Of a stretch of DNA of 64,000 bases, positions 1 through 30,169 are shown one piece after another; the first letter of the stretch is position 1; each line of letters starts with the position of its first letter. A model generated the notes under the pieces. The model saw nothing but the letters and a program-made list of their open reading frames with translations, made no database searches and was not told the origin of the DNA. This DNA is from an uncultured delta proteobacterium (GTDB lineage: Bacteria > Desulfobacterota > Desulfobacteria > Desulfobacterales > SG8-13), in the NCBI GenBank assembly GCA_963848135.1, contig CAWKCK010000003.1:682001-746000 (forward strand), in the 5' to 3' direction. The position numbers and the translations under genes are program-made.

Positions 1-950
1 CCAAACCGGATCAGGATGGCAATAAAAATAAGTGAGTGTAGGGACCAGCGTTGAATACTGTTTTTTAGAATCCGCCGTTGTAAAACAATGTCCAGGACAA
101 TTACCCTGATTGCCGTGAGGAATTTGCGTGAAAAGATCGTCTGCCAAACCGCATCGGAAGTCAGACTGATTTTCCGGTGCAGTGATTCGCCTTCGCCCTT
201 AACACTGCCGATAAACCAGAAGCGGACCATCAAAAACGTACCGCCGAGAAACGTGATCAATGCGATCCAGAATATGGGATGTCCGACGCCGAGAGATGAC
301 GGATGGCACATGATGCACAGCAGGCTTTTGGCCGGTAAGACGGCCGTTGGCGCACCGACCGTGTTTTGCGCTTGGTGACATCGCCGGCAGTTTTTTTCAT
401 CGCTGACATCATCGAGCGTATGATCGACCAGGCCGATCGGTTGTTGATCGGCATCCAAAAATGCCAACTTGACACGGTTGTCCCTGCTGTCGAGCATAAT
501 GGCTTTATGCTTGAAATGGCAGGCTTGGCAGTCAATTCTCAGGTGCGGGGCATGGGCGGTGCCTTCTCCGTGAAGCGAGTGACAGTCGCGGCATTGCCCT
601 CCTATCTCGGATCGGTGAGGCGATCGGGCCACGTCGGTATGACAATGGATGCAGGCCACGTATTGATGTGGATTGTCTTGAAACGTGCCGGCGATTACTT
701 GCAGCGGCACTTCCTTGCCGTCAACCACACGGCGGCAGTCGGGGTTGGCGTGGCATTCGTTGCAGAAGGCTCGGGAGGATTGCACGCCTTCATTGGTATT
801 TATATTGGGTTGCCGGTGGCAATCCAGGCAGATCGATTCCGCGTTTTTGGTGGCAAAATCCTGGCCGGCCATCAACGGATATACGCTAACAGCCAGAAGA
901 ATGGCGACACCGGCCGCGATCACCAGACCTATTCTACCCCTATTTCTCAT
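1..950 (-). CDS. Multiheme (7 CxxCH) cytochrome c fused to a membrane domain; partial, runs off the left edge and is absent from the ORF track
   Basis: Manual translation from ATG at 950 (RBS GGAGAGG): signal-like MRNRGRIGLVIAAGVAILLAV, then CLDCH, CNECH, CIHCH, CRDCH, CQACH, CRRCH, CIMCH, then hydrophobic segments (IFWIALITFLGGTFLMV; RWSLHSLIFIAILI). No stop before position 1. Confidence 0.9.
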   Translation of the reverse strand, partial: MRNRGRIGLVIAAGVAILLAVSVYPLMAGQDFATKNAESICLDCHRQPNINTNEGVQSSRAFCNECHANPDCRRVVDGKEVPLQVIAGTFQDNPHQYVACIHCHTDVARSPHRSEIGGQCRDCHSLHGEGTAHAPHLRIDCQACHFKHKAIMLDSRDNRVKLAFLDADQQPIGLVDHTLDDVSDEKNCRRCHQAQNTVGAPTAVLPAKSLLCIMCHPSSLGVGHPIFWIALITFLGGTFLMVRFWFIGSVKGEGESLHRKISLTSDAVWQTIFSRKFLTAIRVIVLDIVLQRRILKNSIQRWSLHSLIFIAILIRF

Positions 951-1039
951 CTGAGTTATGTTTCCTCTCCATCTAATGAGCCGCGTGTGATTTTTTCACC
1001 GGCAAACGATCGCGTGTCCGGACGAACCCATTCGAAAGC

Positions 1040-1756
1040 TCACTCCTCGGCAGAATCTCCGCCATCGTGAGCGGTCGCCCATTCGCCCGGATGTTCCGCG
1101 ATAATTTTTTCTTTTGTCGTTCTTCCGGTAAAAATGCTTGTGTCGGCCGGATATACGGCCGGTCTCAAATGGGCCAGTCCAATATGAAGAAAAAATTTAA
1201 CGGCAATCGCCAGAATAGCTTCGAAAAAATGCAGCACCTGGGCGATATTGATGAAATATCCCGGGATAAAACGGGTGAAGAACTCCGGAAACCACATCAC
1301 CAGGCCGGTAAGCCCCATGGTGTTCATACCGATAAAAAGGGCCCAGTAATCGATTTTTTCCATATAAGTGAATTTGTCGAATTTTGGAGGCGTTTCTCTG
1401 CGGCCCAAAAAATAACGTAAATTTTGAGAGAAGTCTTTGAAATCCTTAATAGAAGGGGCGATTGAAAGCGGGCCGGAGAGTTGACCTGAAAGGGCCGCTT
1501 TATAGTAGAGAAACCACAACGCATGCACGACCACACATAAATAAGTGGCAACAGCGAAAAAACGATGCAGCCATGCAGCACCGCCGGATCCGCCGACAAG
1601 CCAAATAAATGCTCGGGCGGGCGCCGTTGAGCTAAATCCCAACGACAGGCCCGTAACGGCCAGTCCGGTGAAGCCGATCATCACCACCAAATGCAGGAAC
1701 CGGTGAAGAACGGAGAATCGAATCGGGAGGTCTTGGGAGTACTTTTCTGCAGCCAT
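1040..1756 (-). CDS. Di-heme cytochrome b, FdnI/HydC-like (CbcL-type b domain)
   Basis: RFSVLHRFLHL, WLHR, KFTYMEKIDYWA, VLHFFEAILA and FLH motifs; four hydrophobic helices. Confidence 0.88.
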   Translation of the reverse strand: MAAEKYSQDLPIRFSVLHRFLHLVVMIGFTGLAVTGLSLGFSSTAPARAFIWLVGGSGGAAWLHRFFAVATYLCVVVHALWFLYYKAALSGQLSGPLSIAPSIKDFKDFSQNLRYFLGRRETPPKFDKFTYMEKIDYWALFIGMNTMGLTGLVMWFPEFFTRFIPGYFINIAQVLHFFEAILAIAVKFFLHIGLAHLRPAVYPADTSIFTGRTTKEKIIAEHPGEWATAHDGGDSAEE

Positions 1757-1757
1757 C

Positions 1758-2657
1758 CTAATGTTTCCTCAGTTTTTCATGCAGTTCTCTCAAAAGCCAA
1801 AGAAGACTGTGTCCGAAAAAGAAAATCAGCGACAATGCCACCACCGCTATCACCGCAATCTTGATGCGATGGATCCAGAGGATCGATCGATGCTTGGGGG
1901 ATTCGGTGGCAGATAATTCGTCCATAGAGGCGTGGATAACGATATTGGTGAATTCGGTTTCAGCGGTCGGGTGGCATCGGCGGCAGACCGGCAACGCAGC
2001 TGTCGGCTCTTTGAGCGAGGTCATGGTGTGTGCCTGGTGGCAGTCTGTACAAAAGGCAGCGGCCGGATTTTCCAAGTTCACACCGACTCTTCCGTGAATA
2101 TTTTCGAGGTAACTGGCGGTTTGAACCCTGTGGCAACGGCCGCATGTAGGGATCATGCGTTTGCCGACAGTGACCCGGGACAGACCGGAGCGATCGTAGT
2201 GTGAAGAATGGCAGTCACCGCAGGTGGGTGCCGGTGTTTTGATTTTTTCCTTTTCACCGGCCGCATCCGATTCGGCAATTTCTTTGGACAAGGCCTTGGC
2301 ATGCTCGCCTTCCAGATACCGTTGGTATGACAGTTTGTGGCATTGCCGGCAGCGGCTGTAGTCGAAGACGCGTTTCGCCGCTTTCTTCAGGTTGTCCGGC
2401 TTTGTCTTATCCGGATGGGTCCGATTGTTTTCGATCATGGTCCCATGGCAGTCCTCACATTTAAAGCTGGCATGGGCCGAGAGTCCAAATCGGTTCAAGT
2501 CCACAAACCAATTTGCCTGGGACGTCGTGACGGTTTCGGCGCTTCCTTCAACGTTGCCTGCAAACCCAACCGCGACCAGCGTAATGGCCGCAACCGTCAA
2601 CCACGCGGCCATGTAGGTTTTAACCCAAGAACGGTTACGAAAAATTTCGCGTGCCAA
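1758..2657 (-). CDS. Hexaheme cytochrome c with N-terminal signal and C-terminal membrane anchor
   Basis: CEDCH, CRQCH, CGDCH, CGRCH, CTDCH, CRRCH; C-terminal helix IAVVALSLIFFFGHSLLW. Confidence 0.92.
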   Translation of the reverse strand: MAREIFRNRSWVKTYMAAWLTVAAITLVAVGFAGNVEGSAETVTTSQANWFVDLNRFGLSAHASFKCEDCHGTMIENNRTHPDKTKPDNLKKAAKRVFDYSRCRQCHKLSYQRYLEGEHAKALSKEIAESDAAGEKEKIKTPAPTCGDCHSSHYDRSGLSRVTVGKRMIPTCGRCHRVQTASYLENIHGRVGVNLENPAAAFCTDCHQAHTMTSLKEPTAALPVCRRCHPTAETEFTNIVIHASMDELSATESPKHRSILWIHRIKIAVIAVVALSLIFFFGHSLLWLLRELHEKLRKH

Positions 2658-2674: not shown

Positions 2675-3988
2675 TCAGTTGGGTTCCGATGCCGTCAAAA
2701 AGTACAGATGGAGAAACGCTGCCGTAAATTTTTGCAACAGGGCGAATAGCTGGCCAGCAACCGGTAGGGTATCGTGATCTTGGTCCAGGTTATTTTTCAT
2801 CAGCCGAAGCATGCTGGTGATTTCTGTGGCCCAAGCCCGAAGGTCAGTCGGCGTCCACTCGGTGGTACAGAGCCGACCCCGGGCCTCGAGGAACTTGAGG
2901 CGGTGCCACATTGAATCAAGAAATACTCTTATTTTTTCAGGTTCATAGTATTTTGTCCCGATCAGCCACCGAAGGGGTAACAATTCGAGACCGGCCGCCA
3001 CAATCCTTGAGTTGCTCAACTCCCGCTTCAAAGCCCTGATCAGATCTCGGCTGTCGGTTTCGGAAAGTTTTTCCGATTTCACCCGCTGCGCCGGGTCGCT
3101 GTGAGATGACCGGCCCGCATCCCAGAAGATGGCGTCCGCAATCAGCCCGTTGGCTTCAGGGTAATGGGGATGTTCGAGGTGTGGACCGAAGAGATAAATA
3201 TTCCCGCGACCAAGATTTGCACGAACGGCTGCCGCCTTTCCGATCAACGTCTCGTAAGCCAGGGCTTCATCCACCAGATATACGGTTTTATTGGTGAAGG
3301 CCTCGTAATGCGCCAGAACTTGTGCGCCATCGGAAGCGATCATGGCCGGTCCGCCGTACAAAGGTGCCGTCAACGCGCCGGGGCCAGAAAAAGGGGCCGT
3401 GCCGTTGACGCGTAACCCGATGGATTCTCGCACCGGGTGGAAAACAAAGCAACAACCATAGGCCGTTGAGAACTTATGGGGCATCTCATGGCAGTGTGGA
3501 AGATACTTGCTGAGGTTGGTGATCTTTACTGCCGCATAATTGAAGAGATTCAATGGCGATTTGGATGAGTTCATCGCCAGGTAGGCACCGGCACAACTCC
3601 CGATGTATAGACCACCGTTTTCAATAAAGCGCCTGATTTCACTGGCACCGTTTTTTCCCAGAGCGGTTGCAATAGTGAAGGTGTCCCCACCTGAGATGGC
3701 CAATACATCAAGGCCCTCTAACCCGCCTTCCTGAACGTTGTATTCATTCAGAAAGGAAAGATTGTTAAACCCCATGCGCTCGAACAGGTCGACGAACCAC
3801 AACCATGAGTGGGAGGTGCCTTCACCAGTGAAAATACCGACCTTGGAATATCGCAACTGGCGGCTGCCGGTTGTTTCCCGTTCGGATATACGACCTTGGC
3901 CGCTTTTACCGGTAAAAAATAATCGTTCCCCTCTGGCCAATCTTTCATTGGCAGCGGCGTATTGATCAAATACTGTTGCGAAGGCCAT
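2675..3988 (-). CDS. BPL_N-domain protein (class I glutamine amidotransferase-like) with a C-terminal helical extension
   Basis: ISGGD, YIGSCAGAY (Cys nucleophile), YGGP and GPHLEH (His-x-Glu). Confidence 0.8.
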   Translation of the reverse strand: MAFATVFDQYAAANERLARGERLFFTGKSGQGRISERETTGSRQLRYSKVGIFTGEGTSHSWLWFVDLFERMGFNNLSFLNEYNVQEGGLEGLDVLAISGGDTFTIATALGKNGASEIRRFIENGGLYIGSCAGAYLAMNSSKSPLNLFNYAAVKITNLSKYLPHCHEMPHKFSTAYGCCFVFHPVRESIGLRVNGTAPFSGPGALTAPLYGGPAMIASDGAQVLAHYEAFTNKTVYLVDEALAYETLIGKAAAVRANLGRGNIYLFGPHLEHPHYPEANGLIADAIFWDAGRSSHSDPAQRVKSEKLSETDSRDLIRALKRELSNSRIVAAGLELLPLRWLIGTKYYEPEKIRVFLDSMWHRLKFLEARGRLCTTEWTPTDLRAWATEITSMLRLMKNNLDQDHDTLPVAGQLFALLQKFTAAFLHLYFLTASEPN

Positions 3989-4141
3989 GTTCAATCTGGT
4001 TGTGCTATTTCATGGTACTATGAGGGTGAATCATCGGCGCGGTCAGCGATTAGGGGCGAACCGGCACCCAATTACGGGGAGCCTGCCGGTTATTCGGTGG
4101 CGCAGCGGTCACCGGTTGATATGTTCATCCCTGGCGGCCCG

Positions 4142-8351: not shown

Positions 8352-8454
8352 GTTGGGATAACAAATGCCGGAAATGCTGTATACGCTGATCTTGTATGGC
8401 TCCGGTTTTAACGAAAAGTCCGGAAAAAATCCGTGGAAACGATTGGAGGAATAT

Positions 8455-14666: not shown

Positions 14667-14753
14667 TTACCGTTGAGCAATAAGATATAATTCGTCTTGC
14701 CGTTTCCAGTAGAGAGGAGATGGTGAACAGTCTGTTATGAGTTGGAGGAAAAA

Positions 14754-15770
14754 ATGACACTTAAAGAAAGATTTATGAAACGGCTAGAGGGCAAAGAGGT
14801 GGATGTGACCCCCGTCGGTTGTACAACCACATACGGTGTCGTGGATATCATGAAAAAAGTAGGGGCCGAAAGGCCTTTCGCCGACACCGATCCCAAAGCC
14901 ATGGCAACTTTGGCCCTGGGATATGTCGAGGCCGGTTTCGAGTGGTGCAAGGCGATGGGTTGGGATATCACGCCGGTGAGCGAAGTGATGGGGTGTACGA
15001 TCGGTGAACCCAAAATCGACCTGCAGAAATTTATCAAGGCGCATCCTTTTTCCGAAAGCCTGGACGGTCTTGGGTACCCCGACAATTTGTTTGAGAAAGG
15101 GCGGTTTCCAGCTTACAAAGAGCAGTTCAAGATTCTGAAAGACAGACTCGGTGACGCGGTGGCTGTTTTCGGAGAATCGGAGGGCGCCTGGACATGTGCC
15201 TGCAACCTCGTGGGTACGGAACAGTTCCTGAAATGGACGTTCAAAGAGCCGGGCAAGGTTCAACAGGTGTTGGATGTCGCAACAGCGGTTGTGGTCGATG
15301 TCATCAACTGGGCTTTCGATCAAGGCGCGGACTACTATGTTCTGGCCGAACCTTCCTCCGGCCCGGCGCTTATGAGTCCCAAGACCTGGGAAAAATATGT
15401 CCTGCCGATGATGAAATCGGTCTGCCAGAAGACCAAAGGGCCGATCGTATTGCATATCTGTGCGAATACCGACAAGATCATTTCTCTTATGTGCGATACC
15501 GGAGTGGCCGGAATCAGCATTGAGGAAAAGGCCGACTTGAAAAAGGCGGTCAACGTTGCCCACGAAAAGGGTGTACGGGTTTTCGGGAATGTCGCCACGG
15601 CAACAACCCTCTTCATGGGTACACCAGAAGCCTCATATGCTGAGGCGATCGCCTGCATAGAAAGCGGCACCGACTTTCTCACTCCCGGATGCGGGATCGC
15701 GCCGCTGTCGCCACTTGTCAACGTGCTGCAACTGCGGAAGGCACGTGACGATTTTTTCAAGATCGGATAG
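14754..15770 (+). CDS. MtaA/CmuA-family methylcobamide methyltransferase (UroD fold)
   Basis: MTLKERF N-terminus, Zn motif LHICAN, GISIEE, GNV and PGCGI. Confidence 0.82.
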   Translation: MTLKERFMKRLEGKEVDVTPVGCTTTYGVVDIMKKVGAERPFADTDPKAMATLALGYVEAGFEWCKAMGWDITPVSEVMGCTIGEPKIDLQKFIKAHPFSESLDGLGYPDNLFEKGRFPAYKEQFKILKDRLGDAVAVFGESEGAWTCACNLVGTEQFLKWTFKEPGKVQQVLDVATAVVVDVINWAFDQGADYYVLAEPSSGPALMSPKTWEKYVLPMMKSVCQKTKGPIVLHICANTDKIISLMCDTGVAGISIEEKADLKKAVNVAHEKGVRVFGNVATATTLFMGTPEASYAEAIACIESGTDFLTPGCGIAPLSPLVNVLQLRKARDDFFKIG

Positions 15771-15935
15771 CTAACGCCAAACGTGTTCCTGTGAACGAAA
15801 AGGCCTTCTAAATACCTTGTGTGCTCGCACAAACAATTCGATTAAATACAAGAAGATAGGTACGCATTCAAAAACCTTTGTTCAATTAATCTTTATTTTA
15901 GCAACATAGAATTTATGGAAGGCGAAGCAACCCTT

Positions 15936-15981
15936 ATATTATAAATATCAGATGTTTTGATATTTATAATATTTGTTGACA
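15936..15981. promoter_or_regulatory. Perfect 15-bp inverted repeat with putative GntR operator and -35 TTGACA, upstream of the ureohydrolase-mmsA-rSAM operon
   Basis: ATATTATAAATATCA-7nt-TGATATTTATAATAT; contains AAATATCAGATGTTT; TTGACA at 15976-15981. Confidence 0.72.
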
Positions 15982-16104
15982 TTTTGAGGCACTTATGTCA
16001 GCTGATGCAATATCATCGTGGCAATTAACCTTGTTCATTGGCGAACGGTTGGGTGTCGTCAACTGGATTCGCAATCGAACAACCAATAACTGACGAACTT
16101 AAAC

Positions 16105-17175
16105 GTGATACGGTCCCCAGAACAAAGCGTCTTCCTGTTCGGTTGTCCCCTGGACTGCGACGAGAAACATGACGCCATCCAGGAAAAGCTCTCCGAACCG
16201 GTCGCCCATGCCCGTTCCGATGACCCGCTGGTTGCGGTTGCAGAGGCCCTTTCAATGCGGGTGCCGCAAAGCGAATGGGAATATGGTGGATCTCTTGAAG
16301 TGCCCGGCTGGCTTCGGCCCATTCCGGACAAAGATGAGCGATCCGGCGTCCTTGTCGAGGCGTACGTTCATTTCATTGATCAAAACGGATGCCGTGATTT
16401 TGCAGATGGTGTTGCCGAGACTGTTCGTTCGCAAATTCTGCCGCGTTTTCCATGTATGGTCACTGTCGATCATTCTTTAACCGGGGGCGTCTACCGGGCC
16501 TTGGCAGAACATTACGGCAAAGACAGACTGTCTTTGCTCGTCATCGACAGTCATACCGATGCGGTTCCCATGTCGAAGCTGGCCGGGGCGATTTCATATG
16601 ACATGGATACCAATCCAAACTCACCGTTCGATCCGACCGACCCGTATCTGAATAACCGACCTGAAAGCTACAATGCCAGTTCCTTTCTCCACTTCATTCT
16701 GGCAGAGGGTTATATAGACCCCTGTGACCTCTATATCTTAGGTGTTAGCGATTTCCCCGACAAAAAGGCTTTTCGGCTAAAGGATTCGAGGATTGCTGAA
16801 TACCTTGCGGTATACACTGAGCTGAGGAAAGGCGGTGCAACGCTCATCACCAAGGATGAGTGCCGATTGAAGCCGACTAAAATTAAAAATCTTCTAAACA
16901 AAATCCGCACGCCCTATGCATATGTGTCTGTTGATATGGATATTGGTGCCCGAAATGCACTCGACGGTGTTCGCTTTCGCAACTGGCAGGGCCTTTCTGA
17001 AAATCAAATTTACCGTTTAGCGGATACAATAGCCCAGACTGGCGGACAAGATCTGAAAATCGTTGGTATGGATATTACCGAAATCAACCCCAGAGCGGCC
17101 GGGAAGCCGCGGGGAGAATCGGTTGATCGCACGTATCAAATAGCGGCGAATTTGATCGAACGCTTCGTTTTTTGA
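16105..17175 (+). CDS. Arginase/agmatinase (ureohydrolase) family protein, divergent
   Basis: VDHS, IDSHTD, SVDMD and DITEINP binuclear-metal motifs; GTG start uncertain. Confidence 0.82.
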   Translation: MIRSPEQSVFLFGCPLDCDEKHDAIQEKLSEPVAHARSDDPLVAVAEALSMRVPQSEWEYGGSLEVPGWLRPIPDKDERSGVLVEAYVHFIDQNGCRDFADGVAETVRSQILPRFPCMVTVDHSLTGGVYRALAEHYGKDRLSLLVIDSHTDAVPMSKLAGAISYDMDTNPNSPFDPTDPYLNNRPESYNASSFLHFILAEGYIDPCDLYILGVSDFPDKKAFRLKDSRIAEYLAVYTELRKGGATLITKDECRLKPTKIKNLLNKIRTPYAYVSVDMDIGARNALDGVRFRNWQGLSENQIYRLADTIAQTGGQDLKIVGMDITEINPRAAGKPRGESVDRTYQIAANLIERFVF

Positions 17176-17283
17176 ATAATTTTTGAAACAAACGGTCAGG
17201 TTGGAGCTGCAAGATCGTGACCCATAAAAGTTAAATGATCACAATATTGGCTGGTCGCAAAAAATGAGAAAGGAGTCAGAAGA

Positions 17284-18879
17284 ATGCTTGAAAAGAAAAA
17301 GGAACGATACTTTGTCGACAGCGGGGCGACAGAGGCCGGTGATGCACCGAAAAAACTCAAATATTGCATCGGGGGGCAATGGCTGGAGTCCAAGACAGAC
17401 AATTACATGAACTGCTATAATCCGTCCACGGGTGAAGTCATTGCTCTGGCGCCCCAGTGCACAGCGGATGAGGTGGAGATGGCCGTCACGGCGGCCAAAG
17501 AGGCCTATCCTTTGTGGGCTGATACGCCGGTGGCCAAACGCGTGCAGGTGCTGTACAGAATGAAACACCTGCTGGACACGCACCTGGAAGAACTCACCTA
17601 CCTTCTGGCGATGGAAAATGGTAAAAAGTGGGCCGAAGCCATGGGGGATGTGCTCAAGGTGACAGAGGTCGTGGAGTTTGCCTGCGGTGCACCGCATCTG
17701 ATGAAAGGCGAGTCGTTGATGAATGTCAGCACCGGCTACGACACGGTACAGTACCATCATCCTGTAGGGGTTTTTGCCGGTATTGCCCCCTGGAATTTTC
17801 CGGCGATGATCCCGCATGGTTGGATGACCCCCATCTGTATCGCCACGGGAAACTGCATGATCCTCAAAGCCGCCAGTTTCGTTCCCCAGTCTTCCATGCG
17901 AATGATGGAACTGTGGCAGGAGGCCGGGATTCCCGACGGGGTGATCAACGTCATCACCACCGGTCGTAACGAAGCGGAACTCCTGCTCAGCCACCCGGAT
18001 ATTGCGGGAATTTCCTTTGTCGGCTCCACGAAAGTGGGATTGCACATATACAAGACCGCTGCCGCCAGCGGCAAGCGTGTTCAAGCCCTGTGTGAGGCAA
18101 AAAACCATGCTTTGGTCCTTAGAGATTGCAAGCTTGAACGGACCGCCCAAGGCATTATCAATGCTTTCTGTGGTTGCGCGGGCGAGCGTTGCATGGCCCT
18201 TCCGGCCATCGCCGTGGAAGAATGCATTGCCGATGAACTGGTGGGTCTGTTGAAAAAATACGCGTCGGAAATGAAGCTGGGTCCGGCTTACGAAAAAACG
18301 ACCGATATGGGGCCGGTAGTCAACGAAGGGCACATGAAATTCGTATCGAATTGGATCCAGACCGGGATCGAGGAAGGGGCCGTACCTGTGGTAGACGGCC
18401 GCAACCCCCAGGTGCCGGCTGGTTGCGAAAAGGGATTTTTCATTGGACCGACGATTCTCGATCATATTACCGAAGACATGTCCGTCGGGCGGGAAGAGAT
18501 ATTCGGGCCAGTATTGTGTGTTAAACGGGTGAAAAATTTCGAAGAGGGAATCACCCTGATGAATAACAGCCGTTTTGCCAATGGATCGGTGATATATACG
18601 CAAAACGGTTATTATGCGCGTGAATTCGCCAAACGGACGGATGCCGGCATGGTCGGTATCAATGTGGGTATACCGGTCCCGCTGGGAATATTCGGCTTCA
18701 CCGGGCATAAACAATCCTTCTTCGGTGATCTGCATGTGATGGGCAAAGACGGATTTGCCTTCTTTACCGAAACCAAAAATGTCACCAACACATGGTTTTC
18801 GGAAGACGAAGATTATAAGGCTTGCAAGGTCGATACCTGGGATGGAACCATTACCTCTCTGCCGGTTGACGACAAATAA
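17284..18879 (+). CDS. mmsA: CoA-acylating (methyl)malonate-semialdehyde dehydrogenase
   Basis: PWNFPAMIP, SFVGST, KRVQAL.EAKNH, GERCMA and GMVGINVGIPVP. Confidence 0.9.
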   Translation: MLEKKKERYFVDSGATEAGDAPKKLKYCIGGQWLESKTDNYMNCYNPSTGEVIALAPQCTADEVEMAVTAAKEAYPLWADTPVAKRVQVLYRMKHLLDTHLEELTYLLAMENGKKWAEAMGDVLKVTEVVEFACGAPHLMKGESLMNVSTGYDTVQYHHPVGVFAGIAPWNFPAMIPHGWMTPICIATGNCMILKAASFVPQSSMRMMELWQEAGIPDGVINVITTGRNEAELLLSHPDIAGISFVGSTKVGLHIYKTAAASGKRVQALCEAKNHALVLRDCKLERTAQGIINAFCGCAGERCMALPAIAVEECIADELVGLLKKYASEMKLGPAYEKTTDMGPVVNEGHMKFVSNWIQTGIEEGAVPVVDGRNPQVPAGCEKGFFIGPTILDHITEDMSVGREEIFGPVLCVKRVKNFEEGITLMNNSRFANGSVIYTQNGYYAREFAKRTDAGMVGINVGIPVPLGIFGFTGHKQSFFGDLHVMGKDGFAFFTETKNVTNTWFSEDEDYKACKVDTWDGTITSLPVDDK

Positions 18880-18931
18880 AGCCGGAATTATTTAGCGCCA
18901 ATTGCGTGACAAACCAATGAAAGAATGCTAA

Positions 18932-18965
18932 CAGGCTCCAATTCCATAAAGAGGATTGGGGCCTG
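18932..18965 (+). terminator. Stem-loop between mmsA and the radical SAM gene (leaky terminator or stabiliser)
   Basis: CAGGCTCCAAT...ATTGGGGCCTG followed by CTTTG. Confidence 0.45.
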
Positions 18966-18990
18966 CTTTGCTGTGGCCGAAACATTTCGC

Positions 18991-20598
18991 ATGAAGGAAA
19001 TAATTACAGAAATTCAAAGCTGGGGCATTCGCGTGCCGCCGGATATTACGGGGCGCAATGGCGGGGCCGGCCCGGCGGAGGGCCGGGCGATGTTAATTGA
19101 CGGAATCGCCGTAAACGCCCCCATAAGCACGGTGTATACCAAACGGTCGCCATTCCGTCTGACGAAAGATCCTGATGGCCGTTATACGTTGTACCGGTAT
19201 GACCAGCGTGTGACCGCCGTTTCAGTGGTACCGCCACCGCACTTCTATGACTACACCGGATCCGACGGCGTTTCCTTGCAGAAGATCGCCCTGCTGCATG
19301 GCGCCGACTGTCTGGCGACCACGGTACGCCAGCGGTGTGTCAACTGGAAAAAGTCTCTGCGCTGTGCTTTCTGTGCCATAGAGCAATCGCTTGAAAATAA
19401 CCTCACGATAGCTGAAAAATCTCCCCACCAGTTGGTCGAAGTGGCCCGCAAAGCAAAATCCGAAGACAATGTCACGCACATGGTGCTCACCTCGGGAACC
19501 GCAGATCCGCCAGGGGCTGAGATAGACTATCTGGCTCGATGTGCAACCGCAATCAAAGCATCAGTAGACATGCCCCTGCACGTTCAATTTTTACCCCCGG
19601 CTGATCTTGGATTGATGGAGCAATTGAAAACCGCCGGGGTCGATACCGTGGGCATTCATATCGAAAGTTTCGATCAGGGGATCCTGCGGAAACTGGCACC
19701 GGCGAAGGCGCGAATCGGGCTTGACAGATATGAGGCCGCCTGGAAAAAAGCTGTGGCTGTGTTTGGACCCAACCAGGTGAGCAGTTTTTTGATCGTCGGC
19801 CTTGGCGAACAGCCTGAGTCGATTGTTTGGGGCAGTGAATATTTGGCGGACCTGGGTGTGTACCCCTTTGTCGTCCCCTTACGGCCCATCCCCGGATCTT
19901 TTCTGCAGGAGACCCTAACGCCGGATCCGGTCTTGATGGCCCGCATTTACACAGATGTGGCCGATATCCTGCGCAAAAAAGGTCTGACAGCGAAGAAGAG
20001 CCTCGCCGGCTGCGTCCGATGCGGTGCTTGCACAGCATTGCCCCTTTATGAAAAGCCGTGTCATCAGATTACCTATCACAGCGCCCGCACGGATAATGAA
20101 CTTTCCCAGGCTTTTGGTATTCGTCAGAAAGTATTCATCCAAGAGCAGGCCCTATTCGTTGATTCGGATATTGATGAAAACGATGCGGCCAGCATCCACA
20201 TTGTGGCCAACAAAGGGGGACGAATCGTCGGTACTGTCCGGGTTTTTCCGGATCCTCATCAGCGGGGAGGCCACTGGATCGGTGGTCGACTGGCGGTGCT
20301 CAAAGACTTCCGAGATTATCGCGTCGGCGCCGCCCTGGTGAAGGAGGCCATGAAGCGGGTCAAGAAAAAAGGCTGTGCCGTATTTACAGCCCACATTCAG
20401 GAAAAAAATATCAGATTTTTTAAAAAGCTTGGCTGGGTCGCCGCAGGACCAGTCGAAACTTACTGCGGTCGTCCTCACCAGCGTATGCAAGCCGATTTGA
20501 GCCGTATCGTAGGCAGGGAGATGCATAGCCTGCCTGAAACAAGGCTGCCGAAATTGGATCCTGCTGTGACCTCTGAGCTTGAGAGAAATTACACATGA
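18991..20598 (+). CDS. MSMEG_0568/NitD-family radical SAM protein fused to a C-terminal GNAT (MSMEG_0567/NitE-like) domain
   Basis: GGAGP, KIALLHG..CLATTV.Q.C-x8-CAFC, HMVLTSGT, GIHIESFD, VYPFVVP.RP and AGCVRCGAC; then F.IRQKVF..EQ, VGTVR, GGRLAV and F.KLGW. Start could be 18925 or 18991. Confidence 0.88.
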   Translation: MKEIITEIQSWGIRVPPDITGRNGGAGPAEGRAMLIDGIAVNAPISTVYTKRSPFRLTKDPDGRYTLYRYDQRVTAVSVVPPPHFYDYTGSDGVSLQKIALLHGADCLATTVRQRCVNWKKSLRCAFCAIEQSLENNLTIAEKSPHQLVEVARKAKSEDNVTHMVLTSGTADPPGAEIDYLARCATAIKASVDMPLHVQFLPPADLGLMEQLKTAGVDTVGIHIESFDQGILRKLAPAKARIGLDRYEAAWKKAVAVFGPNQVSSFLIVGLGEQPESIVWGSEYLADLGVYPFVVPLRPIPGSFLQETLTPDPVLMARIYTDVADILRKKGLTAKKSLAGCVRCGACTALPLYEKPCHQITYHSARTDNELSQAFGIRQKVFIQEQALFVDSDIDENDAASIHIVANKGGRIVGTVRVFPDPHQRGGHWIGGRLAVLKDFRDYRVGAALVKEAMKRVKKKGCAVFTAHIQEKNIRFFKKLGWVAAGPVETYCGRPHQRMQADLSRIVGREMHSLPETRLPKLDPAVTSELERNYT

Positions 20599-20613
20599 AC
20601 AGAGGAGGCCGAT

Positions 20614-21597
20614 TTGAGTGACCGGCTGGAGTCTTTAGTGGATTTGATTCGGAACTCTGAAGGTGTGCGGCGCAAACGGCCGATCAAGGAAGTCGTTGAA
20701 CGGTTGAACCGAACGCATGCATTCGGTTCGATGGTTCCAAATTATGGCGATGATGCCGCTGCCATTCCCTGGCAGGATGGGTACCTGCTGGTCGCGGCTG
20801 ACGGCATGATGACCGACCTTCTGGTCAACGAACCTTACGCTGCCGGCAAAGCCTCGGTCATGGTTACCGTCAACGACATCTACTCCATGGGCGGCAGGCC
20901 CATCGGACTGGTCAATGTCCTGGCTAGTGGCGACGGTACCCAGCGCCGCAAAATAGTCGAGGGGATCGAAAAAGGATGCCGCAAGTTGCAAGTCCCCATG
21001 TTGGGCGGCCACTTGCATCCTGATGCACCGCTAAATTATCCGGCATTGAGTGTGACCATCATCGGATTCGCCAAAGCTCTCCTCCGCAGCCACCTGGCGG
21101 CTCCCGGAGACCAGCTGGTCCTTGCGGTCGATTTGGACGGCAAGGCCGGCTGCCAGTCGGTTGTCAGCTGGGATGCCAATTCCGGTAAGAGTTCCGAAGC
21201 CATCCGCCGGCGGTTAGAGGCACTTCCCCTTATTGCCGAAAGCGGTTTGGCATCGGCAGCCAAGGATGTCAGCAACGCCGGGATCATCGGCACCACCGCC
21301 ATCATGCTCGAAAACTCAGGGAAGGGAGCTGATATTGACATCGATGCGATTCCTGTGCCCAATTCTTTAGGGCTCGAGCCGTGGTTGTTGTGTTTTCAAA
21401 GTTTCGGGTTCATCCTATCGGTCCCTCCTGAGGCCACCGACCGGGTACTGTCCCTATTCTCTGAGCGCCAAATTACCGCTGCAGTCATTGGTATCGTGCA
21501 GGCAGATCCTGTCGTAAAGATATGCAGCGGAAACGATTCCAACGTTCTCTTCGATTTCAGCCGGGATATCATTACAGGAATTCGGCCCCCACTTTAA
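20614..21597 (+). CDS. PurM/AIR-synthase-like ATP-dependent protein (sll0787/NitF, methanogenesis-marker-2-like)
   Basis: GDDAAAI, LVAADG, VNDIYSMGGRP, GGH and AKDVSNAGIIGT. Confidence 0.88.
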   Translation: MSDRLESLVDLIRNSEGVRRKRPIKEVVERLNRTHAFGSMVPNYGDDAAAIPWQDGYLLVAADGMMTDLLVNEPYAAGKASVMVTVNDIYSMGGRPIGLVNVLASGDGTQRRKIVEGIEKGCRKLQVPMLGGHLHPDAPLNYPALSVTIIGFAKALLRSHLAAPGDQLVLAVDLDGKAGCQSVVSWDANSGKSSEAIRRRLEALPLIAESGLASAAKDVSNAGIIGTTAIMLENSGKGADIDIDAIPVPNSLGLEPWLLCFQSFGFILSVPPEATDRVLSLFSERQITAAVIGIVQADPVVKICSGNDSNVLFDFSRDIITGIRPPL

Positions 21598-23553: not shown

Positions 23554-23569
23554 GGGCACCAAAATTGCA
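23554..23569 (+). promoter_or_regulatory. Sigma-54 (-24/-12) promoter of the CoA-transferase
   Basis: GGGCACCAAAATTGCA against consensus TGGCACG-N4-TTGCW. Confidence 0.75.
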
Positions 23570-23640: not shown

Positions 23641-25647
23641 ATGATTGATGAGAAAGACCCAAATGATGTGGAACGCACCCATCCTGTTCTCTCTTCCCTT
23701 CCGCCACCAAAAACAAAAAAGGGTAAATTAGTTACCGCAGAGGATGCTATTCGCCTGATTAGAAACGGCGATACAGTGGCTACCGGCGGATTTGTCGGCA
23801 TCGGTTTTCCTGAAGAAATTGCCGTTGAACTTGAAGAACACTATCTCAACTATAAAACACCCAAAAATCTGACACTGATTTATGCGGCCGGACAGGGTGA
23901 CGGAGACAAGCGCGGACTCAACCATTTCGGGCATGAAGGCCTGGTTGCAAGAGTCGTGGGCGGGCATTGGGGACTGGTCCCCAAGCTGCAGCGTTTGGCC
24001 ATCGAGAATAAAATCGAGGCTTACAATCTTCCCCAAGGCGTAATTAGCCATATGTATCGGGATATTGCCGCCCACAAACCCCGAACCATCACATCCGTTG
24101 GTTTGGGGACGTTTGTGGATCCGAGAAACGGCGGCGGGAAAATCAATGCCCGCACAACCAAAGAAATGGTTGAATTGATCGAATTCGATGGGCAGGAATA
24201 TCTGGCATACAAGACGATTCCGATCAATGTCGCCATCCTGCGGGGTACCACGGCCGACATGGATGGCAACATCACTATGGAAAAGGAGGCGCTGACCCTG
24301 GAGTCGCTGGCCATCGCGACGGCAGCGAAGAATTCCGGCGGATTCGTCATCGTTCAAGTCGAACGCATCGCTGAGAGCGGCACGCTGCATGCCCGCCAGG
24401 TTAAAATCCCCGGCATTATGGTCGACTGCGTGGTGGTGTCCCGTCCGGAAAACCACTGGCAGACCTTTTCTGAAATATACAACCCGTCTTATAGTTGTGA
24501 AGTCAAAATTCCGATGCATTCGGTAGCGCCCATGGATATGAGCGGCCGGAAGATCATCGCTCGGCGCGCGGCCATAGAGTTGAAAGCCAACAGCATCGTT
24601 AATCTGGGGATCGGCATGCCCGAGGGTGTGGCCAATGTCGCCAACGAAGAAAAAATCCTCGATTTTATTACTTTAACCGCTGAACCAGGTGTCATTGGAG
24701 GCATTCCGGCCGGGGGGCTTAGTTTTGGGGCGGCCACCAACACGGATGCGGTCATCGACCAACCCAGTCAATTCGATTTTTACGATGGCGGTGGCTTGGA
24801 CATCGCCTTCCTGGGATTGGCCCAGGCGGACCGGCAAGGAAACCTGAATGTCAGCAAGTTCGGACCGAAGCTTGCCGGCGCCGGAGGGTTTATCAATATC
24901 AGCCAGAATGCCAAAAAGGTCGTCTTCGTCGGCACATTTACTGCTGGTGGGCTCAAAATTTACGTCAATCAAGGAAAGTTGCGAATTATCCGGGAAGGCA
25001 AGGTTAAAAAGTTTGTCGAGCAGGTCGAACACGTGACTTTCAGCGGCGAATATGCGTTGAAGAAGAAGCAACCGGTGCTGTATGTGACTGAGCGCTGTAT
25101 ATTTGAATTGACCGATGCCGGAATGGTGCTCGTCGAAGTAGCACCTGGTGTGGACGTGGAAGAGCACATCCTCGCCCAGATGGGATTTGAGCCGATCGTC
25201 AACGGTACGCCATCACTGATGGACCCGCGGATTTTCAGCCCGGAGCCGATGGGGTTAGGCAAAGATTTGCTGGCGCTCAAACTGGAAGATCGATTTGTTT
25301 ACGACCGGTCCGACAATCTATTTTTTGTCAACCTGGAGGGGTTTTCCGTGAAGGACAATCGCACAGTCGGAAATATCCGGGATAGCGTCGAGAAAATCCT
25401 CAAACCAGTGGGACATAAAGTGTATACTATTGTCAACTATGACAATTTCAGCATCCTGCCCGAACTCGTGGACGAATACACAGATATGGTCAAGTATCTG
25501 GTGGAAAATTACTATTCCGGGGTTACTCGTTATACCACTAGCGCTTTTCTGAGGGTCAAACTTGGTGACGCGATGCAGAAACGGAATGTCGCGCCGCAGA
25601 TTTACGAAAGCAGCCAGGAGGCAAAGAAGGCGCTGAAAAAAAGCTGA
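23641..25647 (+). CDS. Family I acyl-CoA:acetate CoA-transferase (Pct/YdiF-like) with an extra C-terminal domain
   Basis: AAGQGD, AYNLPQG, VGLGTFVDPR, VNLGIGMP, catalytic AEPG and GAGGFINISQ. Confidence 0.9.
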   Translation: MIDEKDPNDVERTHPVLSSLPPPKTKKGKLVTAEDAIRLIRNGDTVATGGFVGIGFPEEIAVELEEHYLNYKTPKNLTLIYAAGQGDGDKRGLNHFGHEGLVARVVGGHWGLVPKLQRLAIENKIEAYNLPQGVISHMYRDIAAHKPRTITSVGLGTFVDPRNGGGKINARTTKEMVELIEFDGQEYLAYKTIPINVAILRGTTADMDGNITMEKEALTLESLAIATAAKNSGGFVIVQVERIAESGTLHARQVKIPGIMVDCVVVSRPENHWQTFSEIYNPSYSCEVKIPMHSVAPMDMSGRKIIARRAAIELKANSIVNLGIGMPEGVANVANEEKILDFITLTAEPGVIGGIPAGGLSFGAATNTDAVIDQPSQFDFYDGGGLDIAFLGLAQADRQGNLNVSKFGPKLAGAGGFINISQNAKKVVFVGTFTAGGLKIYVNQGKLRIIREGKVKKFVEQVEHVTFSGEYALKKKQPVLYVTERCIFELTDAGMVLVEVAPGVDVEEHILAQMGFEPIVNGTPSLMDPRIFSPEPMGLGKDLLALKLEDRFVYDRSDNLFFVNLEGFSVKDNRTVGNIRDSVEKILKPVGHKVYTIVNYDNFSILPELVDEYTDMVKYLVENYYSGVTRYTTSAFLRVKLGDAMQKRNVAPQIYESSQEAKKALKKS

Positions 25648-25749: not shown

Positions 25750-27171
25750 CTAATCCCTCCGCACGGCGATAGCGTGTTTTTTCATTTTCTTATAGAGCAA
25801 GGTTCGGTGGATACCGAGCAATTCAGCGGCGCGGGTTTTATTGTTGGCGGTCTCTTCCAGGGCACGCAGAATAGCCGATTTTTCGGCCTTCGCTTGCGTG
25901 ACTCGAATCGAGGAGTATTCAGGTGCCTGTGCCGATAACGACTCCCGCCTAACGTAAAATGGCAGGTGTTCGGGTTCGATGGTATCGCCTTCTATCGAGG
26001 ACAAGGCCCGCTCGAGGACATTCGAGAGTTCCCGTACGTTACCTGGCCATTCGTAGTCAGCCAGTGCTCTTTCGGCATCGGGCGCCAACTTAACATTCGG
26101 CATAGCGGCATCCTGCGCCAATTTATTCAACAGGTGGCGTGCGATGTGAACAATGTCGCTTCGGCGTTTGCGTAAAGATGGAATGTGGAGCGGAATGACA
26201 TTGAGGCGGTAGAAGAGGTCCTTGCGAAAATTTCCCCGTGAAAGCATTTCTTCGAGGTTCTGGTTGGTTGCGGCAATCAGCCGGAAATCGGGGCGGATAA
26301 TCGTGTTACCCCCCACCCGTTCGAATTCCTTGTCTTCGAGGACACGCAGGAGCTTCGGTTGCATCTCCAGGGGGAGGTCTCCGATCTCGTCCAGAAAAAC
26401 CGTCCCGTTGTGGGCGAGTTCAAATTTGCCGGGCTTCCCCCCGACTCCGGCGCCGGTAAAGGCCCCTTTTTCATACCCAAACAGTTCGGACTCGAGTAAA
26501 TCTTTTGGAATCGCGGCACAGTTGATGCGGACAAACGGGAATAGTTTGCGGGAACCGGCATGATGAATGGCCTGGGCAAAAAGTTCCTTTCCGGTACCGC
26601 TTTCACCCGAGAGGAGAACCGGAAACTGATTGGATGATGCCTTAAAGGCCTCGTTTTTCAAATATTTAATTTTTCTGTTTTTACCGATGATGCTGTCCAA
26701 TGTGTAGCGTGTCGAGCGCAGGTTGAGCAGCTCCTGTTCGTATAATTTGACCTTGGATTCCAAAAGGGAAAGCTTTCGGGCCAGCTTGCCGACGTCTTTA
26801 ACATCCTTGAACATCACTTGACCAAAGACTGCGATAACTTTGCCATCTCTTTTAATGGGAATGCGCTGAACCACCATTTTTTGGCCCATGATGTCTTGAG
26901 AGTGATTGATTTCAGGCTTGCCGGTTTTGGCCACGATGTGCATGCGACTATTTTCGATGGCTTTCGTACAGTGCCGGCCGATTTGTTCCGCTGGATTCAA
27001 TCCCAGAAAATGTCCGTAAGGTCTGTTGAAGTGGGTAATGATGCCATTCGCATCCGTAACCATGGAGCCGTTGTAAATACTCTCAAAAATCTGCTTGTAC
27101 ATTTCTAGTTGCTCGCAGACCTCTTTGTACTTTTCGGAAATCTTTGTACCTGTCATTGTCCGGTTTTCCAT
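25750..27171 (-). CDS. PAS-domain sigma-54-dependent activator (bEBP) with Fis-type HTH
   Basis: [34 protein letters not shown] and C-terminal HTH; start uncertain (27156-27180). Confidence 0.95.
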
Positions 27172-27232
27172 TGGCGGCATTTGTGGTTTTTTGCGGCGAC
27201 TTTTTGCCAACGTACGTGGTAAAACACTCAAT

Positions 27233-27268
27233 TGTATCAAAATGTCAACATGTATAAAATTTGCTACA
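27233..27268. promoter_or_regulatory. Two tandem TGT-N12-ACA boxes (candidate bEBP enhancer sites)
   Basis: TGTatcaaaatgtcaACA (27233-27250) and TGTataaaatttgctACA (27251-27268), about 140-170 bp upstream of a sigma54 promoter. Confidence 0.65.
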
Positions 27269-28361: not shown

Positions 28362-28446
28362 GCATTCAATGAAAAGAGTCACATGCGACTGCGTCGAGCA
28401 TTACAATAGGAGGCTTGACGTTCACTACCGAAAAAGGAGGATTCTG

Positions 28447-29557
28447 ATGAAACGCTTTACCTGGATTACTCTGACCCTATTTCTGTTCACCGTTATATTT
28501 ACAGCGGTGGCTGGAACCGCTTTGGCTGCCGATAAAGAAAAGAAAATCCTATTGAAGGTTCCGATGGCCTATCCATCCAAGCTGCCTGGCCTCGGTACAA
28601 CCATTCTCTGGATGGAGGAGCGCGTCGAAATGCTAAGCGGCGGCACCATCAAGATCAAAGTCTACGAACCCGGTGAACTGATTCCGGCTTTTGAGATGCT
28701 GGATGCGGTTAACGCCGGGAAAGTAAACGCCAGCTATGGCATCTCCGGTTACTGGTCGGGCAAGATTTCGGCGGCCGCCATTTTTCACCGCCGTTCCCTT
28801 CGGCCCGGAAGCCAGCGAGTATATTGCCTGGATTTATTACGGAAACGGAATGAAGCTGTAGCAGGAAATGTACGACAGCAACGGCATGAACGTTAAAGCG
28901 TTCCTATGCGGTGTCTTACCACCGGAAACCTCGGGTTGGTACGTAAAGGAGATCAAGAGCTCGATGATTACAAAGGCTTACCCATTCGTTTCTTCGGGCT
29001 CGGCGGCAAAACGCCTCCAGAATTTAGGAGCTTCGGTCACCCTTTTGCCCGGCGGCGAAATTTTTCCTGCCTTGGAAAAGCAGGCCATCGAGGGCGCCGA
29101 ATTTTCCATGCCGGCCATCGACACGAAGCTGGGATTCTACAAGATTGCCAAGTACAATTATTTTCCCGGTTGGCACCAGCAGGCCACTTTGTTTGAACTG
29201 CTTATAAATAAGGATGTCTGGAACGGTATGAGCGACCGCCAGAGGATGGTGATCGAGACACTGATGCATGGCAGCACATTGGACACCATGGCCTGGGCCG
29301 AGTCGATTCAAGCCCCGGTGATGCACGAAAATGTCAAGAAACATGGAGTGAAGTTGGAGTACTGGTAGGATGACATGTTGGCCGCAATTAAAAAATCCTG
29401 GGAACAAGTGGAGGCCGAGAAATTCCGGCAAAGACCCATTTTTCAAAAAGGTATGGGAAGACTTGCAGTCTTTCAGGGGGGAATACAAGATTTGGCAGAC
29501 ATATGCATTCCTGCCGCGTCCCAAGCCCCAGGCGTCAGATCTTTACGTCAAATTTAA
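28447..29557 (+). pseudogene. dctP: TRAP transporter solute-binding subunit (DctP/TakP-like), disrupted; end approximate
   Basis: VYEPGEL, GYWSGK, AVPFGP, KGL.IRFFGLGG and YFPGWHQ split across frames; in-frame TAGs at 28859 and 29366. Confidence 0.8.
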
Positions 29558-29647
29558 ACGCACACTGAGGATACTTCATGCCATTCTGCGCCGCCAACAC
29601 GCGGGTGATTCCGCAGAATGTCTATCGTTTATGGAGATTCAATCATC

Positions 29648-30166
29648 ATGGCGGATGAAACCAAGAGCGTCCCAACAAGTTTTCCGACACCATCGAGCGG
29701 GATTCCGGCGTATCGGTCACGTGCTGATGTGGGCCAACTGCGTCGTGATCGCCCTGATTATCTTACAGGTGGTTCTGCGCTATGGATTCGGCCATGGGCT
29801 CGTCATTTTGGAAGAGCTCCAGTGGCACTTTTATGCAGTGGGGATCATGTTCGGTATCTCCTATGCCATCATGACCGACTCCCATGTCGGCATGGATTTG
29901 TTCACGAACGACTGTCGAAGAAGTGGCAGACGCGATGGGATATTTTCGGAACGCTCGTTCTGCTGCTCCCGTTTGCTGTTTTGATTTGTTACCAGAGTCT
30001 CGATTTTGTCCATGAAGCCTGGCGCTTGGGAGAGAATTCCGTTGCGCCCCTGGGGCTCTGCTGTCGCTGGGCGATCAAAGCCGTGATACCCTTGTCTTTC
30101 GCGTTGGTGATCCTGGCCGCACTGTCCCGGGCCTTCCGGAAGATAGCGATTCTAAGGAGGGCATAA
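29648..30166 (+). pseudogene. dctQ: TRAP transporter small permease, frameshifted
   Basis: QVVLRYGF, EELQWHFY and SHVGMDL, then a frame change to ERLS...RWAIKAVIP. Confidence 0.8.
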
Positions 30167-30169
30167 CCA

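Follow-up and report, generated by a model that had tools for sequence, protein, structure and literature searches.

This report is about two adjacent genes on the forward strand of a 64,000-nucleotide (nt) stretch of contig CAWKCK010000003.1, from an uncultured bacterium of the Desulfobacterales. We call this whole stretch the window, and positions are those of the window unless another contig or genome is named. The first gene encodes a radical S-adenosylmethionine (rSAM) enzyme with a GNAT domain fused to it, and the second encodes a PurM-like protein. The families of these proteins are best known from Nit1C gene clusters, and we argue that the two genes belong to a relative of the Nit1C core that does without a nitrilase. 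The features of the pair are as follows (aa, amino acids).

18991..20598, + strand: rSAM-GNAT fusion gene; its product has 535 aa if translation begins at the ATG at 18991, or 557 aa with an alternative ATG further upstream, at 18925
~19006-20052, + strand: rSAM domain (profile match)
19336-19374, + strand: C-x8-C-x2-C (CVNWKKSLRCAFC; C116, C125, C128), the site of the radical SAM cluster
20008-20031, + strand: GCVRCGAC, a C-x2-C-x2-C motif (C341, C344, C347)
~20074-20502, + strand: GNAT domain (profile match)
20614..21597, + strand: PurM-superfamily protein (AIRS + AIRS_C), 327 aa, with a TTG start 15 nt past the fusion gene

We prefer 18991 as the likely start of the fusion gene because the TIGR04043 model begins 5 residues past its ATG and because most homologues are 505-545 aa long. 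Numbered in the 557-aa frame, residues 28-376 match the NCBIfam model TIGR04043 (rSAM_MSMEG_0568) at 383.4 bits, against a cut-off of 303.7, and residues 384-526 match TIGR04045 (MSMEG_0567/Sll0786 GNAT) at 118.7 bits, against a cut-off of 68.45. There is no stop between the two domains, and Pfam agrees. So an initial annotation, which was made from the letters of the window alone, was correct in describing an MSMEG_0568-family rSAM protein with a GNAT domain at its C-terminus. It was also correct about the cysteines: both of the motifs that it named, C-x8-CxxC and the auxiliary CxxCxxC (GCVRCGAC), are present, and none of C107, C116, C125, C128, C341, C344, and C347 (numbered as in the 535-aa protein) varies among the 28 fused homologues that we aligned. 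GCVRCGAC is likely the site of a second iron-sulfur (Fe-S) cluster, perhaps together with the invariant C107. Among the matches listed, all 119 homologues at 56-87% identity contain both the radical SAM and the GNAT domains of Pfam. Some of these are named by their sources as proteins of Desulfobacterales, Desulfosarcinaceae, Desulfobacula, or Desulfospira, and the product names in the databases already recognise both families.

An AlphaFold2 model of the fusion protein has a predicted local distance difference test score (pLDDT) of 90.3 and a predicted template modelling (TM) score of 0.89. The last 26 residues or so are disordered in this model (the tail, 510-535, is below 50). When we compared the model to the PDB with Foldseek, the GNAT domain was nearest to YjcF/SACOL1063 (TM score to target of 0.88-0.90), and the rSAM domain was nearest to HydE and BioB (TM score to target of about 0.5, with 16-19% identity). 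A sequence search of the PDB found no close solved relative of the rSAM domain.

Nit1C clusters (nitBCDEFGH; sll0783-0787 in Synechocystis; MSMEG_0565-0572, or “gpr”, in M. smegmatis) contain the same three core families in the same order: rSAM, GNAT, and PurM-like. The rSAM and GNAT domains described here score above the same curated models. In the text available to us, Podar et al. 2005 (PMC1199592) define the seven-gene cluster, describe its ORF1 tentatively as YchN-like, and place its AIRS gene nearest to a group of archaeal genes; the names NitA-H are from PMC11049912. Nit1C is conserved across phyla, and it has been linked to growth on cyanide in some studies and to responses to nitrogen starvation and peroxide in others (PMC1199592, PMC11049912, PMC6039565). 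For example, the gpr cluster of M. smegmatis is induced by GlnR and is required for resistance to peroxide, and the available text assigns no enzyme function to it (PMC6039565). As far as the accessible parts of these three papers go, the rSAM, GNAT, and PurM-like enzymes of Nit1C have no assigned function.

What is missing here, as judged by the nitrilase, NitB, and NitH, is the rest of Nit1C. The initial annotation had noticed that the window lacks the nitrilase, NitB, and NitH, and profile searches extend this absence to the whole genome, which comprises 6.03 Mb in 18 contigs and is 98.65% complete. The genome contains exactly one TIGR04043 gene, and no remainder of a Nit1C cluster turned up elsewhere in it: no protein is above the cut-off for the sll0784-type nitrilase (TIGR04048; best 212.3 bits versus 502.6), there are 0 matches to the NitB-type model (TIGR04042, the MSMEG_0570 family), and the best match to the NitH-type flavin oxidoreductase (TIGR04046, the MSMEG_0569 family) has just 23 bits versus 498.35. 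We also searched a sample of 401 genomes from the same phylum. The rSAM protein was above its cut-off in 40 of these, and a Nit1C-type nitrilase was above its cut-off in none of the 40 (the best had 434 bits versus 502.6 and was on another contig). So nitrilase independence is the rule in this phylum. The proposal in the initial annotation that the rSAM/GNAT/PurM-like core is independent of the Nit1C nitrilase therefore holds both for this genome and for 40 of 40 rSAM-positive genomes. The system also differs from Nit1C in that the GNAT is fused to the rSAM protein, in that the PurM-like protein fails to reach the sll0787 cut-off and is not part of the sll0787 clade, and in its partners, which are an amidotransferase-like protein, a cytochrome/HdrD-like module, and an SsuA-type importer. 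Our searches of full-text literature, within the text that they reached, found no published description of a nitrilase-free form, of the rSAM-GNAT fusion, or of these partners, so neither the fusion nor its context seems to have been characterised already.

These partners emerged from a survey of half of the rSAM-positive genomes (20 of 40), in each of which we compared the genes in a region of 20 kb that surrounds the rSAM gene. The PurM-like protein is adjacent to the rSAM protein in 16 of the 20 loci, and an HdrD-like protein with CCG domains is present in 17; both are minimum counts, as several contigs break off within the cluster. The recurrent gene order begins with the amidotransferase-like protein, a multihaem cytochrome c, a cytochrome b, and the HdrD-like CCG protein, and continues with an SsuA-type binding protein (TIGR01728, 167 bits, above the cut-off of 163.5), a permease, an ABC ATPase, the rSAM protein (with or without a fused GNAT), and the PurM-like protein. 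The GNAT is fused to the rSAM protein in 13 of the 20 loci, as judged by a single alignment over at least 90% of the query, while in 6 of the 20 there is a separate GNAT or coverage of at most 71%. In one locus (L032), the three genes are unfused and are in the Nit1C order, with the GNAT between the rSAM and PurM-like genes. The make-up of the module (multihaem cytochrome c, cytochrome b, and an HdrD-like CCG protein in the cytoplasm) recalls Tmc, Hme, and DsrMK, which are redox complexes in the membranes of sulfate reducers, but the module is none of these, with 81 bits for TmcB (versus 735), 77.5 bits for DsrK (versus 400), and 63 bits for HmcF (versus 750). The best named relative of the CCG protein in the cluster is TfrB, a subunit of the CoM/CoB thiol:fumarate reductase, at 229 bits, which is below the cut-off for TfrB.

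In the genome under study, the two halves of this set have been separated. A whole-genome tblastn search located the partner half at G000:C3:676880-685856 on the minus strand, so it lies partly inside the window:

G000:C3:676880-681323, just left of the window: HdrD-like CCG protein, SsuA-type binding protein, permease, and ABC ATPase
3..1756, − strand: cytochrome b/NarI-like membrane protein in two open reading frames (ORFs), 1040..1756 and 3..950, of which 3..950 runs off the left end
1758..2657, − strand: multihaem cytochrome c
2675..3994, − strand: amidotransferase-like protein (resembling class I glutamine amidotransferases), the first gene of the partner half, with a weak match to BPL_N/Peptidase_S51

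The partner half is 15 kb upstream of the rSAM pair and on the opposite strand, and the two halves diverge. Between them lie a gene resembling aldehyde ferredoxin oxidoreductase, a GntR regulator, a GlcD-like oxidase with a second CCG protein, a LivKHMGF importer, a methyltransferase of the MtaA/CmuA family, an arginase-family protein, and MmsA. In other words, a rearrangement has driven the two halves apart, and about 15 kb of catabolic genes now separates them. The initial annotation had described a portable trio, and this is too narrow: the pair belongs to a larger conserved set that includes the amidotransferase-like protein, cytochromes c and b with the HdrD-like protein, and the SsuA-type importer.

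Two of the intervening loci have features of their own. The gene at 4142-5644 (− strand) encodes a 500-aa protein that has only the N-terminal domain of aldehyde:ferredoxin oxidoreductase, with a small 4Fe-4S protein beside it, and the same pair is found near the rSAM cluster in L017 and L021. The FAD oxidase and the second HdrD-like CCG protein are at 6906-9768 (+ strand), where the latter is 38% identical to the CCG protein of the cluster in L019. The GntR/FCD regulator gene is upstream of this pair, and the same pair is beside a rearranged cluster in L013.

The co-occurrence of the amidotransferase-like protein with the rSAM protein is very consistent. The amidotransferase-like protein is found in 45 of the 401 genomes, including all 40 that are rSAM-positive. 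Four of the five remaining genomes (G246, G289, G360, and G363) hold partial or split rSAM matches, and in the fifth (G229), the contig ends right after the ABC ATPase gene. In G289 (C1:140755-148829), the amidotransferase-like gene is interrupted by three in-frame stops and the rSAM match is truncated, which looks like joint decay of both genes; in G360 (C12:96283-97327), the rSAM gene is split into two frames. Reading frames like these suggest that the system is possibly decaying in both genomes. In 28 of the 40 genomes, by a comparison of the two tables of matches, the rSAM and amidotransferase-like genes share a contig and are no more than about 21 kb apart. The sole firm case of truly unlinked halves is the closed genome G033, where they are about 600 kb apart: the rSAM-GNAT/PurM-like pair is alone, and the amidotransferase-like gene remains with the cytochrome and ABC genes. 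G026 is a possible second case. We rejected G199 because of a contig break, and G387 is probably explained by a contig break as well. We view the co-occurrence as a strong pattern rather than as a statistic.

As for the amidotransferase-like protein itself, a cysteine (Cys134, in GSCAGAY) and His272-x-Glu274 are invariant in 13 of 13 aligned rows. Its Pfam matches are confined to BPL_N and Peptidase_S51 and are weak, and no NCBIfam model matches it, including the models for glutaminases. Its look-alikes in the Atlas are BPL_N clusters, which are most often from Thermodesulfobacteriota.

The PurM-like protein is harder to place. It matches AIRS (83.9 bits) and AIRS_C (72.9 bits) in Pfam, and it scores almost identically against two NCBIfam models without reaching the cut-off of either: 306.9 bits for TIGR03267 (methan_mark_2, for methanogenesis marker 2; cut-off 365) and 306.0 bits for TIGR04049 (sll0787; cut-off 321.3). 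Thus, of the four families that the initial annotation proposed to check with hidden Markov models, MSMEG_0568 and the MSMEG_0567 GNAT are above their cut-offs, and sll0787 and marker 2 are below theirs. The motifs in the PurM-like protein that it quoted as reminiscent of marker 2 are at 20626-20685 and 21262-21294. In a sequence search of the PDB, there was no close solved relative; the best ones were PurL (56 bits, the top match), SelD, ThiL, and HypE. The protein is far below the equivalog cut-offs for PurL, PurM, ThiL, SelD, and HypE.

The family is a small one: a search of 1.84 billion representatives gave only 155 clusters (formed at 50% identity) that match at E < 1e-30. We scanned the 98 near-full-length representatives of 150 listed clusters, leaving out 52 fragments or short rows; 30 were above the sll0787 cut-off, 4 were above the marker 2 cut-off, and 64 were above neither. 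Three of the family's members (P0172, P0187, and P0189) are fusions of a GNAT to the PurM-like protein, with TIGR04045 above its cut-off, and they occupy three different positions in the tree. One member of the P0172 cluster is named as being from Clostridia.

We built a tree from 107 rows: 94 representatives, the query, and 12 proteins from the surveyed loci. (P0220, P0221, P0224, and P0231 were left out because they are partial matches.) The sll0787 clade has 31 rows and a support of 99 by the Shimodaira-Hasegawa-like approximate likelihood ratio test, and the window's protein is outside of it. Instead, the window's protein and those from all 12 loci in the phylum form a separate clade of 24 rows, with a support of 85. 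In the free tree, this clade is on the marker 2 side. However, a constrained tree that joins it to the sll0787 clade is better by 29.7 log-likelihood units (with a p-value of 0.797 in the approximately unbiased test), so we dropped the idea that it is nearer to marker 2. The phylogeny that the initial annotation had called for hence gives the protein a clade of its own, which is distinct and unnamed and lies between sll0787 and marker 2, and it settles neither of these as the nearest relative.

The initial annotation had also suggested a likeness to archaeal marker 2, which is homologous to the window's protein and has the same length, although the host here is a bacterium. This likeness stands at the level of sequence, given the equal scores for the two models and given that archaeal marker 2 proteins are up to 43% identical to the window's protein (L086, among 80 archaeal loci). 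Also, a table in PMC3226654, in the part of the paper that was available, gives the first match of marker 2 outside of the methanogens at 3e-55. The likeness does not extend to the genomic context. In 80 archaeal genomes, whose marker 2 loci we found with a 5-row alignment, none of the loci had homologues of the rSAM-GNAT, CCG, cytochrome, FMN-reductase, or amidotransferase-like proteins within 8 kb of marker 2, and none of 5 methanogen genomes had a close relative of the rSAM protein (the best score for NF045502 was 86 bits versus 125). In Methanobacterium (L098:6897-14833), marker 2 comes directly before Mmp3, Mmp6, Mmp15, and a gene for a NifB-like radical SAM protein, so by its gene order, it sits in an operon associated with methyl-coenzyme M reductase, unlike the window's gene. 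In Methanosphaera (L112), the pattern of the marker 2 gene cluster matches that of Methanobacterium, though this is a match of pattern only. In Methanomassiliicoccales, marker 2 is preceded by a conserved 193-aa protein that has no NCBIfam match (39 of the 80 loci). The kinship of marker 2 and the PurM-like protein is real, and their genomic contexts are different.

What might the system do? Our reading, to which we give a probability of roughly 55%, is that the two genes give this genome its own intact copy of a core that is related to that of Nit1C but is independent of the nitrilase, and that this core, with its conserved partners, acts as a pathway for a small molecule. We have high confidence in the identity and the context of the system and low confidence in its chemistry. 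Judging from sequence matches, the rSAM-GNAT/PurM-like system is common in this phylum, and the names of the nearest homologues point to Thermodesulfobacteriota/Desulfobacterales.

Under this reading, the rSAM, GNAT, and PurM-like proteins would act on the small molecule as one assembly. Because the GNAT is fused to the rSAM protein here and to the PurM-like protein elsewhere, it may be physically between the other two, with all three proteins in contact. The SsuA-type importer would bring in the substrate, probably a sulfonate-type compound. The GNAT would bind an acyl-CoA and make or present an amide, and the HydE/BioB-like rSAM domain, probably with its second Fe-S cluster, would carry out radical chemistry at an unactivated carbon. 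Members of the PurM superfamily such as PurL, SelD, ThiL, and HypE use ATP to activate oxygen or a chalcogen, and the PurM-like enzyme might likewise spend ATP on activating the oxygen of a carbonyl or an amide, as PurM and these enzymes do. The HdrD-like module would supply or remove reducing equivalents. Finally, the amidotransferase-like protein might perform the nitrogen step that the nitrilase performs in Nit1C. In its most specific form, the amidotransferase-like protein would be a non-orthologous replacement for the nitrilase, and both would provide or remove nitrogen for a PurL-like, ATP-driven activation, by the PurM-like enzyme, of an amide that the GNAT had formed and the rSAM enzyme had altered. 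We consider this version to be quite speculative and would not bet on it. The parallel is to PurL and PurQ, as the AIRS and AIRS_C domains are present here and the co-occurring protein, with its Cys-His-Glu set, would be the counterpart of PurQ. On the other hand, the genes for the amidotransferase-like and PurM-like proteins are not neighbours, and when the halves are separated, the former stays with the cytochrome half.

Alternatively, the system could be a maturase: the HydE-like rSAM enzyme and the HypE/PurM-like enzyme would build or insert a metallocofactor or a ligand for the HdrD-like/cytochrome complex. HydE and HypE do this kind of maturation for hydrogenases, and by analogy, archaeal marker 2 may do likewise for methyl-coenzyme M reductase. 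The nearest solved folds of the rSAM domain (HydE and BioB) and the presence of HypE among the solved relatives of the PurM-like protein are consistent with this, as are the co-occurrence of the pair with a redox module and the placement of marker 2 beside Mmp3, Mmp6, Mmp15, and the NifB-like gene in Methanobacterium, with a similar pattern in Methanosphaera. But the TM score to HydE is only about 0.5, with 18-19% identity, and a maturase leaves the GNAT and the SsuA-type importer unexplained. Furthermore, the organisms with Nit1C carry the same trio without such a redox complex, as far as can be told from the available text of Podar 2005 (PMC1199592). Overall, a role in maturation seems rather unlikely to us.

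A second alternative to a pathway with phylum-wide partners is that the trio is portable and complete in itself and works here for the catabolic genes next to it (the Liv importer, the MtaA-like methyltransferase, the arginase-family protein, and MmsA) by making or modifying a cofactor or an intermediate. The features that bear on this are as follows.

14742..15770, + strand: MtaA/CmuA-family (URO-D-family) methyltransferase; PRK06252, 287.7 bits (cut-off 244), and TIGR01463, 241.1 bits (cut-off 235.4)
16105..17175, + strand: arginase-family protein; Pfam Arginase, 71.5 bits (cut-off 22), with only 38.9 bits for the arginase equivalog
17284..18879, + strand: MmsA; TIGR01722, 530.9 bits (cut-off 448.5)
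18932..18965, + strand: hairpin in the 111-nt gap between MmsA and the rSAM gene, with a 13-bp stem, 7 G-C pairs, and a weak T-tail (CTTTGCTGTG); a pattern match only

The rSAM pair is on the same strand as these genes and begins 111 nt past MmsA. From LivK to the PurM-like gene, the gaps between genes are short except for this one and for 334 nt before the arginase-family gene. Also, a contig of 625 nt from a metatranscriptome, from a relative that is about 92% identical, spans 18557-19180 and so bridges the gap between MmsA and the rSAM gene. (This data set consists of contigs only, which hold 0.06 of the words and are from a relative at 90-95% identity, so it cannot show a single transcript, its strand, or its level.) And in a genome of the same order (G206), a URO-D gene (68% identity) and an arginase-family gene (53%) are beside the rSAM pair. 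Nevertheless, the URO-D/arginase/aldehyde-dehydrogenase context is seen again in just one (L013, in a genome of the same order) of 20 related loci, and even there, the aldehyde dehydrogenase is only 40% identical. The hairpin divides MmsA from the rSAM gene, and the partners that recur across the phylum are other genes, which are still within 15 kb here. So the neighbours at 14742..18879 are probably not part of the system, the initial annotation's choice of a ureohydrolase and MmsA as the partners does not hold up, and we think it unlikely that the trio serves the local catabolic genes.

A match to the sigma-54 consensus at 18957-18971 is too near to the ATG to be convincing, and a scan of the window for sigma-54 promoters found 75 matches versus 70.9 expected, or no enrichment. 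The methyltransferase at 14742..15770 is of the methylcobamide:thiol type, and we saw no gene for a corrinoid protein among the ORFs annotated in 4142-32494.

Two further ideas about the chemistry, each of which would give the rSAM domain a different task, strike us as improbable. One is that the protein works like Elp3, so that an acyl-CoA held by the GNAT is the substrate of the rSAM radical and a C-C bond is formed to a target (carboxymethyl or acyl transfer). Elp3, the catalytic subunit of Elongator, is the only solved protein with the same order of domains (rSAM, then GNAT/KAT) that aligns along the whole model: its chains (8ptx_C, 6qk7_C, 8asv_C, and 6ia6) are alone in aligning over the entire fusion, across about 500 columns. 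However, the root-mean-square deviation of 15-17 Å and the TM scores of 0.29-0.40 mean that the domains are packed differently, the identity is 11-14%, the rSAM domain is nearer to HydE and BioB, and many relatives have a GNAT that is separate or is fused to the PurM-like enzyme. Nothing that came up, with no search aimed at it, hints at tRNA as the substrate.

The other idea is the insertion of sulfur or selenium, in which a BioB/LipS2-like rSAM enzyme would insert sulfur from its auxiliary cluster, a SelD-like PurM protein would activate the chalcogen, the HdrD-like protein would reduce a disulfide, and the imported substrate would be a sulfonate; this is just as improbable. In its favour are the weak LipS2 and BioB matches of the fusion protein, the HmdB match and second LipS2 match of the unfused homologue in L032, the 64.9 bits for the selD model, the SsuA family of the binding protein, and the TfrB-like CCG protein (229 bits). 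But all of these are sub-threshold family resemblances, and the genome has no gene for coenzyme M synthesis of the ComA type (PF02679). SelD carries a cysteine or selenocysteine in its N-terminal loop, whereas the loop of the PurM-like protein has R20-K21 and neither of these residues. Others have called small proteins of Nit1C YchN/DsrE-like, in the text that was available (PMC1199592, PMC6039565), which fits with sulfur chemistry.

There are also several points that weigh against our preferred reading of a nitrilase-independent pathway with conserved partners. Given the same-strand MmsA gene upstream and the bridging contig, read-through from the catabolic operon is possible, and the URO-D and arginase-family neighbours do recur in a genome of the same order (L013). 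The FMN reductase, which lies between the ABC ATPase and the rSAM gene where it occurs, is with the pair in only 5 of the 20 loci, and there is none near the pair here. The link between the amidotransferase-like protein and the PurM-like protein is indirect, because G033 keeps the former with the cytochrome/ABC half. The co-occurrence makes the evidence look stronger than it is, since related genomes do not provide independent cases. And all of the mechanistic steps that we have proposed are analogies from the chemistry of superfamilies.

Downstream of the pair, we noticed a few other features of the window. A match to the sigma-54 −24/−12 consensus with one mismatch (GGGCACCAAAATTGC) is at 23554-23568 (+ strand), about 73 nt upstream of the gene at 23641-25647 (+ strand), in a window whose count of this motif is not above chance. 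That gene encodes a FadX-like CoA-transferase of 668 aa, and it is adjoined by a gene for a PAS/sigma-54 activator at 25750-27240 (− strand). The genes for a TRAP transporter at 28369-31344 (+ strand) look broken: DctP is split into two ORFs (of 175 and 166 aa), DctQ and DctM are present as fragments only (of 204 and 162 aa), and there is an unmatched ORF of 186 aa. Reading frames of this kind point to probable pseudogenes.

In conclusion, the core that is known from Nit1C runs without a nitrilase in about a tenth of the sampled phylum, with partners that are different and very consistent, and its GNAT is joined to the rSAM protein in some lineages and to the PurM-like protein in others. In this way, the chemistry of the core is set apart from nitrile hydrolysis. 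The results also provide named candidates for the partner proteins: the amidotransferase-like enzyme, the SsuA-type binding protein, and the HdrD-like module. Archaeal marker 2, whose function is likewise unassigned, joins one small superfamily with these bacterial enzymes. If the amidotransferase-like protein does replace the nitrilase, then in bacteria of the sulfate-reducer type, the pathway would be tied to a dedicated HdrD-like membrane redox module and to a sulfonate-type importer, and there would be a first mechanistic handle on the 20-year-old puzzle of Nit1C and on archaeal marker 2.

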